This document shows positions 2,876-36,852 of a DNA stretch of 64,000 bases, in pieces. Source of the stretch: Nanobdellota archaeon (GTDB lineage Archaea > Nanobdellota > Nanobdellia > Woesearchaeales > GCA-2686295); NCBI GenBank assembly GCA_018819065.1, contig JAHJQL010000075.1, positions 625 to 64,624 of the forward strand, given 5' to 3'. A program made the position numbers and the translations under genes. The first letter of the stretch is position 1. The number at the start of each line of letters is the position of its first letter. The notes under the pieces were generated by a model. That model worked only from the letters and a program-made list of their open reading frames with translations, was not told the origin of the DNA and did no database searches.

Positions 2876-4478
2876 CCAATGGTTTGTTTTCAGAAAACTT
2901 GATTCCTGAAACTCTATAAAATTCCCTTGTATCTATTTCATCTTTTCTTAATTTCTGATAAGCATTTCTAACTTCACCAATTCTTCTTTGAATTCTAGCA
3001 TCTGCAATCAGTCTTAAACTAGCTCCGTCATTAATTCCTTCTATTAGCGGCTCTTCGTAAGTATGCACTTCATTTACACTTCCATCTGGATTTAATTTTG
3101 GGATAAAATAAGTTACTCTGCTTCTTTCTCTGTCAATATCTTTTTCTGCTACAAAATTAGGTTTAGGATAAACATAAGAATTTCCTTGTTCGTGCAGGAT
3201 ATTATATGCTTGCCATCTTGCCATATCTGATGTATCAAAATGCCCATCTAAAAAAGTGATTGCCTCACTAACCCTTTCAATAGGAACTGTCAATTCTGGA
3301 TAAGAGGGAGAGTGCATATTTACAATTGCTTTATACGGAATTACTCCTATTTCATAAGCAGCTTCACTAATAGCTCTCATTTTCTCAGCTGATTTTTGAG
3401 GATCATCTCTGTAAAAATTAATCCCTTCTTGAAGAGGCATTTGTAAATGAATACTAACTCCTGCTTCTTGTAGTCTTTCAGTTGCAATTCTTGCTTCGGG
3501 AGTTAATAACTGGTGTTCATCTGTTACATGGCAATTAAAATACAATTGCTTTTTTGCTTTTCCATTTCTGCCATTATTTTTTCTTCTAAAATCAGATAAT
3601 CTGCTAACTAAATCATCATTTATCTTATAGAACAATCCCTGATACACGGCAGAAGTACAAATTCTAACAGCTTTCAAATGCTCTGCTTTTCCCAGATGAT
3701 CAAGTATTTTTCCCATTGTGTCCGGAGAATACATCAATGGCTCTCCACCACTAATAATAACAGTATTGACTTCTGGATGTTGATTTAACCAATCTGTCAA
3801 TAATCTTGTTTGTTCTACTGCTCTTTGTTCTTGTAGATTTAATTCTTTTTTTAATTCTGCATATTTTGGATCAATATCTGCCAATGCAGACATTCCTAAT
3901 CTTGTCAATACACCTTTATAACATTCAGCACAACCAACAGGACAAAATTCTGTTATATTCTCAAGAACAGCATAATCAAACTTTCTTGAACCAAGATATT
4001 TGCTACCTTCTCTAGTAATTGCTCTGATTTGGTCTTGGCCTCTAAAAATTCCATATGGATCGAGACTATGTTTTTCTTTACCAGAATATAATTTTGGTAA
4101 ACTTGGAACATATTTCTTCATTGTAGAGCCGCCAAATAATACATTAAGAGGAAGAATACTCATCTCTCTTCCAGTTTCCAAAGATGCGCTGACACTTTCA
4201 ACATCTACTTCTTCATTTAATGAAGTCAAAGATTTCAAATCAGTTACTCTAAAAGCCATATGAAAAGCAGGAGTTTGCCATAAATCATTCCTATCAACAC
4301 CTAAAAAAGAAGCTGTTCTAGATACTAACTCATCTAAAGTCTCTCCTTTATCTTCGGGAACTTCAGCAGTTTCAAATCCATTTTTCTGAAGATAATAATT
4401 TCTAGCATAGCTATAAAAATCTCTTATTCCAATTTCCAATGCTTCTTGTTTAATTTTATCCAATCTCATTTTAACCAC
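2859..4478 (-). CDS. Radical SAM protein, KamA (lysine 2,3-aminomutase)-like
   Basis: 539-aa ORF with CxxxCxxC cluster CPVGCAEC and ISGGEPLM downstream, as in KamA-family aminomutases. Confidence 0.7.
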   Translation of the reverse strand: MVKMRLDKIKQEALEIGIRDFYSYARNYYLQKNGFETAEVPEDKGETLDELVSRTASFLGVDRNDLWQTPAFHMAFRVTDLKSLTSLNEEVDVESVSASLETGREMSILPLNVLFGGSTMKKYVPSLPKLYSGKEKHSLDPYGIFRGQDQIRAITREGSKYLGSRKFDYAVLENITEFCPVGCAECYKGVLTRLGMSALADIDPKYAELKKELNLQEQRAVEQTRLLTDWLNQHPEVNTVIISGGEPLMYSPDTMGKILDHLGKAEHLKAVRICTSAVYQGLFYKINDDLVSRLSDFRRKNNGRNGKAKKQLYFNCHVTDEHQLLTPEARIATERLQEAGVSIHLQMPLQEGINFYRDDPQKSAEKMRAISEAAYEIGVIPYKAIVNMHSPSYPELTVPIERVSEAITFLDGHFDTSDMARWQAYNILHEQGNSYVYPKPNFVAEKDIDRERSRVTYFIPKLNPDGSVNEVHTYEEPLIEGINDGASLRLIADARIQRRIGEVRNAYQKLRKDEIDTREFYRVSGIKFSENKPLVVGGD

Positions 4479-4577: not shown

Positions 4578-5315
4578 ATGGCAGAAATTGACATTTTAGA
4601 GGATTTAGGACTTTCAGAAGCAGAAGCTAAAGTATATTTAGCTCTATTAGAAACAGGCTCTACTTTGGCAGGCCCCATAATAAAGAAAACAGGCCTACAT
4701 AGAGGTACAACTTACCAAATATTACAGAGATTGATTGAGAAAGGATTAGTCAGTTATGTAATAAAAGCAGGAAAAAGATATTTTGAAGCAACTGATCCAA
4801 ATAGGTTTTTGGCAATTTTAAAAGAGAAAGAACAAAAAATACAAGAAATCTTACCTTCCTTAATTCAGAAAAGAGAACTTGGAAAAGAAAAACAAGAAGT
4901 TAATGTATATTCTGGATACAAAGGAATTAAAACTGTATGTGAAAATATGCTTGAAGAACTAAAGGAAAGGGGAGAATATCTTGATTTTGGAGTTTCAGGA
5001 TTATTCAGAGATGTGATGGGACCATATTGGGATTTATGGCAAACAAAAAAGAAAAAATACAAGATAAAAGCTAAATGTATCTTTGATGAAATCTTAAAAG
5101 AAAAAAATCCCAATCTTTTAAAAGATTATTTTGGAGAAGCAAAATTTCATTCTAGTGAATTTAAGAGTTTAACAGACACAATAATATACAACGATAAAGT
5201 TGTTTTATTTATTTGGACAGCAAAACCCCCTATTGCTGTTATAATTCAAAATAAAGAAAATGCAGAGTCTTATAGAAATCAATTTAATTTAATGTGGAAA
5301 CATTCTAAGAAATAA
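4578..5315 (+). CDS. TrmB-family transcriptional regulator
   Basis: N-terminal wHTH LGLSEAEAKVYLALLETGSTLAGPIIKKTGLHRGTTYQILQRLIEKGLVSY is typical of archaeal TrmB. Confidence 0.8.
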   Translation: MAEIDILEDLGLSEAEAKVYLALLETGSTLAGPIIKKTGLHRGTTYQILQRLIEKGLVSYVIKAGKRYFEATDPNRFLAILKEKEQKIQEILPSLIQKRELGKEKQEVNVYSGYKGIKTVCENMLEELKERGEYLDFGVSGLFRDVMGPYWDLWQTKKKKYKIKAKCIFDEILKEKNPNLLKDYFGEAKFHSSEFKSLTDTIIYNDKVVLFIWTAKPPIAVIIQNKENAESYRNQFNLMWKHSKK

Positions 5316-22518: not shown

Positions 22519-22770
22519 ATTAAAAATCTCGATAGAGATTTTGTTTGGGTTTAATACTCAGAAATAATTTGTGATTTCTGGTACTAGAAATGTTCCATTT
22601 CTCTGTACCCCAACCTTTAGGTCGAGATTTTTAATTCAGAGAAATGTTTTTGCATTTCTCGAACCAGCAACTTTGTTGCTGTGTTCCAAAAATTCAACTT
22701 TTAAGATAGTCGAGCGTAATACCCCAACCTTCAGGTTGGGGATAGCCGACTATCATCGAATTTTTGTTAT
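22519..22770. repeat. 252-bp direct repeat, copy A (3' flank of tRNA-Arg)
   Basis: It aligns without indels to 23161-23412 (offset 642 nt), and I count 9 substitutions. It consists of consecutive hairpins, for example aaaatctc-gata-gagatttt, ggtac..gtacc, cagcaac-ttt-gttgctg and ccccaacc-ttca-ggttgggg nested in gatagtcg..cgactatc. Confidence 0.85.
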
Positions 22771-22777
22771 AAACGTA

Positions 22778-23123
22778 CGGACCTGGGGGGACTTTCGTCA
22801 GAAACAACTCGTGTGGCTGAGCGAACTTGAAGTGAGCGAATGCCGCACTTCAGTGCCAGCGCCCTCAAAACAAATGTTTTGGGGTCCCAAAAATCTTTGA
22901 TTTTTGAGGAAATGAGTGTCGCTGTTTCGAACCCCCGACCTACAGCTTAGGAGGCTGTCGCGCTATTTGCCCACAACCCTTATCAGCGTTATCAAAAAGC
23001 TGCGCTTTTTGGAAACTCCCAAAAATCTACGATTTTTGATAGTTGATGGGGATTATGCTCCCTGTCAGTCGCGGTGCTTTGCACCAATGTGCTGAAGATT
23101 GTTCCAGGCTGCGCTACAGGTCC
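22778..23123 (-). tRNA. tRNA-Arg(CCT) with two long introns (D-loop, about 136 nt; T-loop 59/60, 134 nt)
   Basis: The minus strand reads GGACCTG-TA-GCGC-AGCCTGGAAC [intron about 23100..22965] A-GCGC-G-ACAGC-CTCCTAA-GCTGT-AGGTC-GGGGG-TTCGAA [intron 22925..22792] T-CCCCC-CAGGTCC-G. All four stems are perfectly paired, and the anticodon CCT lies at 22951..22949. Confidence 0.85.
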
Positions 23124-23160: not shown

Positions 23161-23412
23161 ATTAAAAATCTCAACAGAGATTTTGTTGGGGTTTAATACT
23201 CAGAAATAATTTGTGATTTCTGGTACTAGAAATGTTCCATTTCTCTGTACCCCGACCTTCAGGTTGAGATTTTTAATTCAGAGAAATGTTTTTGCATTTC
23301 TCGAACCAGCAACTTTGTTGCTGTGTTCCAAAAATTCGATTTTTAAGATAGTCGAGCGTAATACCCCAACCTTCAGGTTGGGGATAGCCGACTATCGTCG
23401 AATTTTTGTTAT
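23161..23412. repeat. 252-bp direct repeat, copy B (5' flank of tRNA-Arg)
   Basis: See copy A. The substitutions fall in hairpin loops (gata vs aaca) or improve or maintain pairing (caacc..ggtcg vs cgacc..ggttg). Confidence 0.85.
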
Positions 23413-31625: not shown

Positions 31626-32291
31626 ATGATTTCCAAAAGCATGAGTATGAAATTAAAATTAACACCAGAACTTTCAGAGTTTATAGGTATGCATATAGGA
31701 GACGGAACCCTCTATAAGACAAACCGTGCTCTTGTTTGGGAAATGCGAGGTGATTTAAAAGAACAATCTTTCTACGACAACCATGTTATACCTTTATTAA
31801 AAATACTATTCAATGATGATTTCAAAGGCAAAATCAGAACTGGTGGAAAAAGAGGAGTTTATGGCGTTCAAACGACAAACAAATCATTAATTCAAACAAT
31901 TATATCTTTTGGTATTAATCCGGGCAGAAAGTCAAATATATCAATACCTGAAGATATATTAAATTCAAACTTTTTGATTCAAACAAGGTTCTTAAGAGGC
32001 TATTTTGACACTGATGGATGTGTCCGGTTTGACAAGCCCAATAAACATAAAATAGCTTATTATCCTAAGATAGAATTTGCATCTTCTTCAAAAAAATTAC
32101 GAGACGACTTGAAATTATTGTTAAGAAGAGTTGGACTTGAATCCTACACTTGGGATGTGAAAAATAAGTTGGAGTTCAAACTCTGTTTAGCGGGAAAAAT
32201 TAAGACTTTGTTCTGGATAAAAAATATTTGTTCTAAGAATCCAAAACATTTAGATAAATTTTTAAAGTGGCTAAAACTACAAATTAATTAA
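31626..32291 (+). CDS. LAGLIDADG homing endonuclease (two-motif, free-standing)
   Basis: Two LAGLIDADG motifs, LSEFIGMHIGDGTL and FLRGYFDTDGCV, about 100 aa apart. The ORF is not embedded in any recognisable intron or intein and ends 8 nt before a tRNA-Ser 5' module. Confidence 0.8.
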   Translation: MISKSMSMKLKLTPELSEFIGMHIGDGTLYKTNRALVWEMRGDLKEQSFYDNHVIPLLKILFNDDFKGKIRTGGKRGVYGVQTTNKSLIQTIISFGINPGRKSNISIPEDILNSNFLIQTRFLRGYFDTDGCVRFDKPNKHKIAYYPKIEFASSSKKLRDDLKLLLRRVGLESYTWDVKNKLEFKLCLAGKIKTLFWIKNICSKNPKHLDKFLKWLKLQIN

Positions 32292-32295
32292 TGTT

Positions 32296-32316
32296 TCACG
32301 CCGAGGTCGCACAACG
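32296..32316 (+). other. Duplicated tRNA-Ser 5' module (leader + acceptor 5' strand + D-stem), copy A
   Basis: tcacGCCGAGGTCGCAcAAC at 32296-32315 matches tcacGCCGAGGTCGCAtAAC at 32456-32475: 16 exact nt, one mismatch, then 3 more. No matching 3' acceptor strand or T-arm lies between the copies. Confidence 0.6.
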
Positions 32317-32459
32317 GGTTATGCTCCGTTGATGCGCAAAGTGCGGCACAAGACCGCACAAATAAAAAAATCACATTCACGCAGAGGTTGCATTAGTCAA
32401 AAAACAAAAAAGTTTTTTGGAAATGCTTCTCGTCGTTCGCTTCATTACATTACACTCAC

Positions 32460-32676
32460 GCCGAGGTCGCATAACCTGGTATTGCGCAGACAAGAAAAGA
32501 AATACTCTTTTTTGGCGTAAGATTGCTAAGGACTTGTTTGTCTTTATGAAACCAGCAGTACCGCACAGATCCTGTTCCTTCGGGAATTGTGGGTTCAAAC
32601 GACGATTTCGCTCGTCGGCAACGAGGGACAGCGTAAAGCTGTCCGAAGAAACGTTTTGAAAATCCCACCCTCGGCG
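32460..32676 (+). tRNA. tRNA-Ser-like gene with a T-loop (59/60) intron and an interrupted, unresolved anticodon arm (GCT candidate)
   Basis: GCCGAGG-TC-GCA-TAACCTGGTAT-TGC-G ... GTGGG-TTCAAA [intron 32600..32662] T-CCCAC-CCTCGGC-G. The acceptor and T stems are perfect. G73, a 3-bp D-stem with a long D-loop and a possible extra arm (GTTCC-TTCG-GGAAT) suggest class II Ser. The only Ser-compatible loop is TTGCTAA at 32523-32529. No contiguous 5-bp/7-nt anticodon arm exists. Confidence 0.6.
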
Positions 32677-32865
32677 TTTTCTCTTATTTTTGACGATTTT
32701 ATCGTCGATAAACTATTGTCAAAGTTCAACACAGTAGTTAGGTGTTGGCGTAATCTACATATAGCCGACATTAAAAAACAGGTCACTTTATGATCCTCTG
32801 AATTTTTTAATGAAATGGCGTTTTTTCGTAAAATACATAATAATAATACTCCAATAATATTACGC

Positions 32866-36502: not shown

Positions 36503-36643
36503 AGCGGGGTAGGGCAGTCAGGAACGACAAGACTAATTGTTGCTGTAAGTGCCCGTCGGGCTCATATCAAAACTTCGTTTTGGACCTCCAAAACAAGTTT
36601 GTAGGTAACCCGAAGGTCGATGGTTCAAATCCATCCCCCGCTA
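36503..36643 (+). tRNA. Initiator tRNA-Met(CAT) with two introns (D-loop about 25 nt; canonical 37/38, about 41 nt)
   Basis: AGCGGGG-TA-GGGC-AGTCAGGAAC[..]-GCCC-G-TCGGG-CTCATA [36567..36607] A-CCCGA-AGGTC-GATGG-TTCAAAT-CCATC-CCCCGCT-A. The A1:U72 pair and the three G:C pairs closing the anticodon stem are archaeal initiator hallmarks. 35 nt between the D-stem strands implies an insertion. Confidence 0.85.
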
Positions 36644-36852
36644 TCCTTTACAAAAGGATAGGACCCAAAGTGTGCGACATTTCGCTTCGCTTCAGTCCCA
36701 CGAAATTCTTGAAAATATTGATGTTCAGAGATTCCTGTTAAGACTTTGCTATTTCTTTTATGATTGTTGTTTTTTAAATTCGGAATGTTTGTAAATCTTC
36801 CGGAAAATCTTTGTAAACACTTATTAAGAACATTCACTCAACATCTTTTATC

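Follow-up and report, generated by a model that had tools for sequence, protein, structure and literature searches.

We found that a locus in a 64,000-nucleotide stretch of DNA from a Nanobdellota archaeon (assembly GCA_018819065.1, contig JAHJQL010000075.1; hereafter the window, meaning the whole stretch analysed) is a predicted tRNA-Ser(GCT) gene of four exons and three bulge-helix-bulge (BHB) introns, occupying positions 32460-32676 of the plus strand in a Nanoarchaeota/Woesearchaeota metagenome-assembled genome (MAG) of the DPANN archaea. We consider it probable that the gene is functional-looking, that two decayed partial copies of its 5' end lying immediately upstream (units A and A') are relics within its leader, and that its transcript would be spliced along the pathway proposed below. 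The window, which is AT-rich (∼34% G+C) and coding-dense, is an exact match to GCA_018822225.1 contig JAHJKX010000116.1. ARAGORN and Rfam, run on the unspliced window (Rfam at gathering thresholds, plus E ≤ 10 around the locus), reported no tRNA anywhere. Our own scan for a G+C-rich acceptor pair combined with a T arm, the first version of which was far too permissive and was later filtered by G+C content, returned three tRNA-like loci (Ser, Arg and an initiator-like Met) and no second Ser tRNA gene within the 64 kb.

The case for three introns, as predicted here, rests on orthologues more than on the BHB motif. Relatives are coded L followed by a number, each being a locus or contig fetched from archaeal genomes and metagenomes for comparison; a scan for the 5' exon with one genome per species gave 119 loci, and L126, which is the window sequence itself, provided no strain variation. 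Adjoining the tRNA-Ser gene is a 617-aa PIN-domain ATPase that is 100% identical to the protein of a MAG named 'Nanoarchaeota archaeon' and has relatives at 75-80% identity labelled Woesearchaeota or Nanoarchaeota; on the contigs of those at 78-80%, gene order is kept and a tRNA-Ser gene stands in the corresponding place. The syntenic gene of L004 is an intronless tRNA-Ser(GCT) recognised by ARAGORN (GCCGAGG TC GCA TAGTCTGGTAT TGC G CGGGA TTGCTAA TCCCG TTCCTTTGGAATC GTGAG TTCAAAT CTCAC CCTCGGC G). The same exons are found in L001 with a single 31-nt insertion at position 29/30 (CGG^acag...gcgtaa^GA, where ^ marks the junction), in L006 the D loop and 59/60 bear insertions and the anticodon arm reads CAGGA TTGCTAA TCCTG, and L019 (Woesearchaeota ERP119705_co24_373) is interrupted at all three of the window's intron positions. 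Introns are present at 29/30 and 37/38 in L127, two in number in L102, and one each in L128 and L132; 29/30, 37/38, 59/60 and the D loop are the sites that recur among tRNA-Ser(GCT)-type genes. Because orthologues show the same exons with 0, 1, 2 or 3 introns, the exon joins of the window gene are fixed.

Removal of the three introns leaves an 83-nt class II tRNA, identified by ARAGORN as tRNA-Ser(gct), whose minimum-energy fold is a cloverleaf with a long, 14-nt variable arm (-35.2 kcal/mol). The spliced tRNA does not differ, over its first 46 nt, from the intronless tRNA-Ser(GCT) genes of L009 and L037, and exon 1 accounts for the first 30 of these identical positions; the L009 gene scores at the Rfam tRNA threshold. 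The first-pass annotation, made from the sequence without database searches, had described a tRNA-Ser locus with a clear acceptor, T stem, D arm and G73, and all of these are in place (GCCGAGG at 32460-32466 with CCTCGGC at 32669-32675; GTGGG at 32589-32593 with CCCAC at 32664-32668; G73 at 32676). Serine is the predicted identity; CCA is not encoded at the 3' end of exon 4. That annotation had also put the distance from G26 to the T stem at 102 nt, which we confirm (32487-32588), and had taken TTGCTAA (32523-32529) for the one Ser-compatible anticodon loop, at the price of at least two further excisions. The loop is the right one and the excisions are introns 1 and 2, but the anticodon arm, which had been declared not reconstructible, can be rebuilt as CAG+GA / TTGCTAA / TCCTG from L004, L006 and L019 together with ARAGORN. 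The stems that had been offered in its place, CAGAC/GTCTT and TAAGA/TCTTT, are ruled out by the CAGGA/TCCTG of the orthologues, and the helix AGAC-AAG/CTT-GTCT, suspected of being half of a BHB, forms no splice motif in the three-intron model. The whole precursor folds with z = -4.9, and the acceptor, variable and T arms are present in that fold.

Because a relaxed BHB scan matched 784 times in 450 nt, the motif alone is weak evidence, and it was used solely to score the junctions fixed by orthologues, in the geometry outer helix h', 4-bp helix H, bulge NN^N and inner helix h. All three introns fit this geometry, intron 3 strictly and introns 1 and 2 in relaxed form (Table 1). Intron 3, a strict hBHBh' motif whose local fold (z = -3.94) makes the AAU bulge visible, is the 63-nt T-loop intron that had been proposed at 59/60, and the likeness then drawn to the tRNA-Arg of the window also holds, the latter having TTCG AA^a ... 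CGAA ag^T around a 134-nt intron; 59/60 introns occur in L006, L019, L022, L081, L104 and L111 as well. The local fold of intron 1 displays the AGA bulge. Homologous introns stand at 29/30 in L001/L131, L127, L128, L130 and L132, L019 also has an intron at this position, and the intron end GCGTAA is common to the window, L001, L127, L128, L130, L132, L019, L085 and L088, because its GCGT pairs with the exon's GCGC. Intron 2 could alternatively be placed at 32530-32569 (38/39), which gives an identical product and is not separable by sequence alone. Excision of intron 1 turns the 2-bp outer helix of intron 2 into the 5-bp anticodon stem, and ARAGORN itself reports intron 2 as an anticodon-loop intron when introns 1 and 3 are removed; at this site L019 has a perfect TTGC/GCAA central helix, and L102 and L127 likewise carry a 37/38 intron.

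Table 1. Predicted features of the tRNA-Ser(GCT) locus and its upstream region, in window coordinates; ^ marks a predicted cut, and H, h and h' are the central, inner and outer helices
Feature	Position	Strand	Size	Description
Exon 1	32460-32489	+	30 nt	GCCGAGGTCGCATAACCTGGTATTGCGCAG; acceptor 5' strand, D arm, G26, C27-G29; ends GCG CAG
Intron 1	32490-32520	+	31 nt	position 29/30; H GCGC/GCGT 4/4; bulges AG^a, aa^G; h 7 bp; h' 1 bp
Exon 2	32521-32528	+	8 nt	micro-exon GATTGCTA; G30, A31, U32-A37; anticodon GCT; from comparison with L004 and L006 and the splicing test
Intron 2	32529-32568	+	40 nt	canonical position 37/38; H TTGC/GCAC 3/4; bulges TA^a, ag^A; h 2; h' 2
Exon 3	32569-32599	+	31 nt	A38, TCCTG, variable arm TTCCTTCGGGAATT (14 nt), GTGGG, T-loop TTCAAA
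Intron 3	32600-32662	+	63 nt	position 59/60; H TTCA/TGAA 4/4; bulges AA^c, aa^T; h 2; h' 5 (T stem)
Exon 4	32663-32676	+	14 nt	U60, CCCAC, CCTCGGC, discriminator G73
T-rich trailer	32677-32691	+		TTTT 32677-32680, TTTTT 32687-32691; likely terminator
Unit A	32296-32371	+		leader tcac, tRNA positions 1-20 unchanged, D loop diverged, 10-nt insert; from the direct repeat and alignments
Unit A'	32372-32451	+		degenerate second copy (cacattcacGCAGAGGTTGCAT); 5' module ACATTCACGCAGAGGTTGCAT at 32373-32393
TATA-like box	32256-32267	+		AAATTTTTAAAG; 32 nt upstream of G1 of copy A; within 3' end of the LAGLIDADG open reading frame (ORF)
LAGLIDADG endonuclease-like ORF	31626-32291	+	221 aa	free-standing; 5 nt separate its end from unit A; carries two LAGLIDADG-type motifs; the identical NCBI gene call matches Pfam PF14528

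The duplication of the gene's 5' module 160 nt upstream, which the first-pass annotation had pointed out, is borne out: TCACGCCGAGGTCGCACAACGGGTTAT (32296-32322, copy A) and TCACGCCGAGGTCGCATAACCTGGTAT (32456-32482, copy B, that of the gene) are identical over the first 20 of 20 positions and over 23 of 27 in all. Given a 10-nt insertion, copy A runs beyond the D loop to TGCGCA. This insert converts the D arm of unit A into an 11-bp hairpin, after which come TGCGCA and a second hairpin (GTGCGG...CCGCAC), the unit folding at -25 kcal/mol (z = -2.45); the D loop has C13 and CAACGGGTT / CAACGGGUU in copy A, as against U13 and AACCUGGUA in copy B. The duplicate had been described as single and as lacking any 3' partner of its own. 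The repeat at copy A is real, but there is also a second copy, A', which does have a partner: its 5' module, identical to 32452-32472 at 18 of 21 positions with an alignment score exceeding that of every shuffle, pairs with the downstream complement AAATGCTTCTCG in one long hairpin (-17.9 kcal/mol, z = -4.14; 0 of 200 shuffles equally stable). By local and three-way alignment, A and A' are two decayed tandem units with a period of ∼80 nt. Tandem Repeats Finder reported nothing in 32200-32750, because the units are too diverged, and Rfam gave no family for the hairpin units. An identical arrangement of A, A' and B is present on a second metagenome contig, L129.

The box upstream of copy A is the likely promoter of the whole locus; reading of the sequence gave no TATA-like box within 60 nt upstream of copy B, or at about -32 of A' or B. 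In L127 a TATA-like TTTTTAAAG lies where a homologous LAGLIDADG ORF ends, and 31 nt further on comes a single 5' exon; because that box directly precedes the one 5' exon, the ancestral start would be where copy A stands, and the stretch of 160 nt separating A from B would be an insertion or duplication relative to L127. Since A and A' lie between the sole TATA-like box and the gene, both are probably transcribed within a leader of ∼170 nt. Elsewhere, a TATA-like TTTAWAAA starts 31-33 nt before the mature 5' end in L019, L042, L043, L044, L081, L099, L100, L104 and L111, and longer distances from TATA-like box to 5' end, 41-58 nt, are read in the window, L001 and L128; the near-fixed distance points to many Woesearchaeota tRNA-Ser genes having a very short leader or none.

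One can thus propose the following course of events for the three-intron gene. Transcription would begin from the TATA-like box and give a precursor whose leader includes the self-folded units A and A'. The splicing endonuclease EndA would cut within the six 3-nt bulges, and an RtcB-type ligase would join the exons, including the 8-nt anticodon exon. RNase P would cleave the leader off at G32460, and the 3' trailer would be trimmed after G32676 and CCA added, leaving the 83-nt class II tRNA plus CCA. Oligo-T runs terminate transcription in archaea, and the T-rich trailer is assigned as a likely terminator on this basis. Units A and A' would be relics of a tandem partial duplication, or of a partial gene replacement, at the 5' end during intron turnover, and not alternative exons. 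By pairing with themselves they would hold the spare acceptor 5' strand out of competition with the genuine strand, and selection may be what keeps that spare strand paired.

Several points weigh against this picture. Copy A offers the acceptor 3' strand as good a partner as copy B does (-129.8 versus -128.0 kcal/mol), and is therefore not obviously harmless; moreover, its first 20 nt are perfectly kept and the rest strongly diverged, which is uneven for a neutral relic. The central helix of intron 2 pairs at just three of four positions and intron 1 is without a real outer helix, and both would therefore require a broad-specificity endonuclease. A loop-bearing (L3-loop) EndA of broad specificity, together with tRNA gene disruption, has been described in DPANN, including a Woesearchaeota genome (PMC5829648). 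The splice junctions, the transcription start and the removal of the leader are all matters that we infer. Finally, compensatory changes in similar units elsewhere hint at selection.

The last of these points leads to an alternative to which we give some, clearly minority, credence: that end copies recur at the tRNA-Ser loci of DPANN archaea, and of some others, as a feature under selection, with A and A' as one instance. We surveyed 85 distinct archaeal tRNA-Ser genes, drawn from the fetched loci, for copies of their own first or last 10 nt (≤1 mismatch, ≤300 nt from the gene). Copies of the 5' end lay upstream of 14 of the 85 and copies of the 3' end downstream of 11; the controls gave no 5' copies downstream, no 3' copies upstream and 0-1 reverse complements. 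Around ∼45 non-Ser tRNA genes of the same loci there were 0 upstream and 1-2 downstream cases, a comparison that is biased, the loci having been picked via the Ser pattern. The copies carry the acceptor sequence of their own gene: both 3' copies in L128 show the change of its acceptor (GCCCAGG/CCTGGGC), and in L132 the altered acceptor (GCCACGG/CCGTGGC) is found in 5' and 3' copies alike. When 14 upstream units from 8 genomes were folded, most formed hairpins with the 5' strand in an acceptor-like helix (z to -5.6, mostly -3.5 to -5.6). In the units of L061, L095 and L106 the outer 8-bp helix is invariant and four of five inner pairs show compensatory changes, with 96.9% of cells paired versus 31-55% when the partner columns are slid; this covariation concerns seven sequences from three genomes, and the structure was derived from those same sequences. 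The candidate explanation of one widespread mobile or RNA family was rejected, the L061/L095/L106 covariance model having found only its seven training copies among 70 sources, and the units therefore appear to arise locally, not from one mobile element.

Individual loci show what these copies look like. Tandem units of the form GCCGAGGTCGCATAC-stem-loop-TKGTCGCGACCTC lie upstream of tRNA-Ser(GGA)/(TGA) in L061 (3794-4053), L095 (6907-7061) and L106 (578-751); their inner stems covary (AAGAC/GTCTT, AAGTG/CACTT, CAAAC/GTTTG), they have no Rfam match, and in the L061 spacers a TATA-like box can be read ∼36 nt upstream of each unit. In L074 (minus strand), two 69-nt units stand 69 and 138 nt upstream of tRNA-Ser, each with an intact 7-bp acceptor stem (GCCGAGG with CCTCGGC or CCTTGGC) and a covarying inner hairpin (CATAG/CTATG versus TGCAG/CTGCA), and the 3' end and trailer are duplicated downstream of the gene. 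L001 (about 3060-3160), L127, L128 and L132 carry the last 13-14 nt of the tRNA a second time, ∼100 nt downstream. In front of these downstream copies is TGAG NN^T, able to pair with the T-loop TTCA and so to form the 3' half of a 59/60 BHB, and the spacer is therefore readable as a 59/60 intron with a copied last exon; in L127 and L128 there is also a T-run. L029, a GC-rich MAG labelled 'bacterium', has 208 nt upstream of its tRNA-Ser(CGA) an exact copy of the 60-nt leader and of the first ∼47 nt (matches at 4971-4992 and 5179-5200), so that 5' duplication of this kind is also present in a genome of very different type. The end copies might represent live intermediates in the gain and loss of introns, a terminal exon having been duplicated into an intron end, or might serve the precursor as processing or insulator elements. 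The reading of the upstream copy as a decayed duplication, which had been put forward as the conservative one, is thus closer to the evidence but incomplete: the units are two, both fold on themselves, and end duplicates recur elsewhere at tRNA-Ser genes.

Alternatively, A and A' might be eroded attachment-site remnants of elements that integrated in the 5' end of the tRNA-Ser gene, after the model of Caldiarchaeum, a history that we regard as unlikely. The survey has the geometry of integration, in that among the 85 genes 5' copies occur only upstream and 3' copies only downstream; there are published precedents (PMC3293823, PMC9897764), copy A stops about where intron 1 starts, and a mobile-type LAGLIDADG gene is next door. 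Yet neither between the repeats nor beside them is there an integrase or recombinase, the spacers measure 40-230 nt instead of kilobases, the LAGLIDADG ORF is outside the repeats, the copies track each lineage's own acceptor sequence (L128, L132), and the covariance model of one unit type matches no other genome, which speaks against a shared element. In the window itself the spacers are 60-140 nt and hold no ORF with protein homologues; the sole ORF overlapping them (32417-32659) is a mechanical one of 80 aa that is not a gene in the NCBI record. Integration would predict a related, integrase-bearing element carrying GCCGAGGTCGCA in some DPANN genome.

The LAGLIDADG ORF is best described as a neighbour of tRNA-Ser, in a stable association of a homing-endonuclease-type gene with a tRNA gene. 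Homologous ORFs are directly upstream of tRNA-Ser in L127 and L128 and absent in L001, L004 and L006, and exact-protein look-ups of this ORF and of P0018 gave no match. That the ORF might sit inside a giant intron was considered and rejected, no 5' module being found beyond it in the window, L127 or L128.

One could also envision copy A as an alternative 5' exon, the gene starting at 32300 with a fourth, D-loop intron of ∼160 nt (32321-32480) that holds the copy B module, or both 5' modules being used to give two D-loop isodecoders; this was in essence the more speculative proposal of the first-pass annotation, in which two 5' modules were cis-spliced to a shared body in the manner of tri-split tRNAs, and we think it improbable. 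Its merits are that the sole TATA-like box precedes copy A, that the intact acceptor strand of copy A pairs with the 3' strand as well as that of copy B does, and that an in-register junction at 32321-32480 has a relaxed BHB (H CGGG/CCTG 4/4, h' 3 bp) at the same D-loop position as the L006 intron, with all four A/B differences in the repeat fitting the junction motif. However, the inner helix of that motif is 1 bp, and with ∼50 junctions tested one such match is near chance; when all in-register A-to-B junctions were scored, none had H 4/4 together with both flanking helices, so the tri-split-like proposal loses the good BHB that it needs. In every fold the CGGG of copy A is locked in its own 11-bp hairpin, unit A' is left as an unexplained passenger, and L127 and L128 have the same promoter without such an intron. 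Upstream copies elsewhere are closed hairpins in which no junction motif was seen by eye (the BHB test having been run on the window only), and, of the promoters that split pieces would each need, reading of the sequence gave only the one TATA-like box, upstream of copy A.

That the locus is a pseudogene, its three insertions and upstream debris marking a dying gene while a working tRNA-Ser(GCT) resides elsewhere, is very improbable: standard tRNA finders are blind to the locus, decayed copies adjoin it and the minimum-energy fold of the precursor mispairs the D and anticodon region, but the four intact exons match functional-looking orthologues base for base, each of the insertions occupies a recurrent intron position and has the bulges expected there, L019 shares the three-intron architecture, synteny holds with the one tRNA-Ser(GCT) that relatives have, and the 64 kb hold no other Ser gene.

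The other two tRNA loci of the window, Arg and Met, have multiple introns each. The tRNA-Arg(CCT) gene (23123..22778, minus strand), missed by ARAGORN and Rfam, has its 59/60 intron at 22792-22925 and a D-loop insertion of ∼130 nt. On either side of it stands one copy of a perfect 50-nt direct repeat (23347-23396 and 22705-22754, within regions 23240-23405 and 22600-22765 of the minus strand); CAACCTGAAGGTYGGGGTA occurs four times in these flanks, in pairs spaced 114 nt, and the 50-nt repeat folds as nested stems (AAAAATTCGA/TCGAATTTTT, GATAGTCG/CGACTATC, CCCCAACC/GGTTGGGG); a structured RNA and a small mobile element are both conceivable identities. At 36503-36642 (plus strand) an initiator-like tRNA-Met(CAT), also missed by standard tools, begins AGCGGGG, has the anticodon arm TCGGG CTCATAA CCCGA and shows apparent D-loop and 37/38 introns, brute-force use of ARAGORN giving ambiguous intron calls; its orthologues in L004 and L006 adjoin tRNA-Ser. 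A motif containing TTCGCT recurs in A' (32436-32446), intron 3 of the Ser gene (32607-32613), the region 3' of tRNA-Met (36680-36692) and the tRNA-Arg intron (22825-22850), examples being tcgttcgcttca, atttcgctcgtcgg, atttcgcttcgcttcag and cattcgctcac...gttcgctcag, and may be shared intron-derived sequence.

Set against known systems, the tRNA-Ser(GCT) gene belongs to a known class, that of multi-intron DPANN tRNA genes, of which it is an ordinary though extreme member. Multi-intron tRNA genes of archaea (Thermoproteales, ARMAN/Micrarchaeota and other DPANN; PMC4090602, PMC5829648) are alike in having up to three introns per gene, in the sites used (anticodon stem, 37/38, T loop), in 3-nt bulges flanking a 4-bp helix, in relaxed non-canonical motifs and in their invisibility to standard finders. 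Nothing essential differs here; the genome is AT-rich and of Woesearchaeota type, not that of a hyperthermophile, and the gene has an 8-nt exon and longish introns (31-63 nt, with 134 nt in tRNA-Arg). The tRNA-Thr(GGU) gene of Caldiarchaeum subterraneum, in which a 5' fragment lies 1.8 kb upstream of a gene with a gained intron (Sugahara et al. 2012, PMC3293823), is similar in that its fragment ends near the intron position, but its repeats flank a recombinase-bearing insertion, whereas the distance here is 80-160 nt, the copies form two decayed tandem hairpin units and there is no recombinase between. Partial tRNAs left by integrating elements (PMC9897764) share the direct-orientation end copy on the matching side; they come with 9-23 kb of element DNA and an integrase, at any isotype, and without tandem hairpin units. 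The split tRNAs of Caldivirga maquilingensis and Nanoarchaeum equitans are alike only in the idea of 5' pieces joined to a shared 3' piece, for those are separate transcription units with long complementary flanks that form the junction BHB, and the arrangement here is in cis and tandem, with neither complementary flanks nor a convincing BHB. The recurrent, side-specific duplication of tRNA-Ser ends, together with its hairpin form, is the sole aspect that is perhaps new.

Regardless of how units A and A' arose, the predicted gene has consequences for how such genomes are read. By standard annotation this genome would seem to want tRNA-Ser(GCT), tRNA-Arg(CCT) and the initiator tRNA, which fits the trouble reported with DPANN tRNA sets, the incompleteness of which has been attributed to undetected disrupted genes (PMC5829648). 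The 8-nt anticodon exon would make a demanding substrate for the splicing endonuclease and the ligase. The same orthologous gene with 0, 1, 2 and 3 introns in relatives, taken with the copies of terminal exons, would offer a natural series for the gain and loss of BHB introns.

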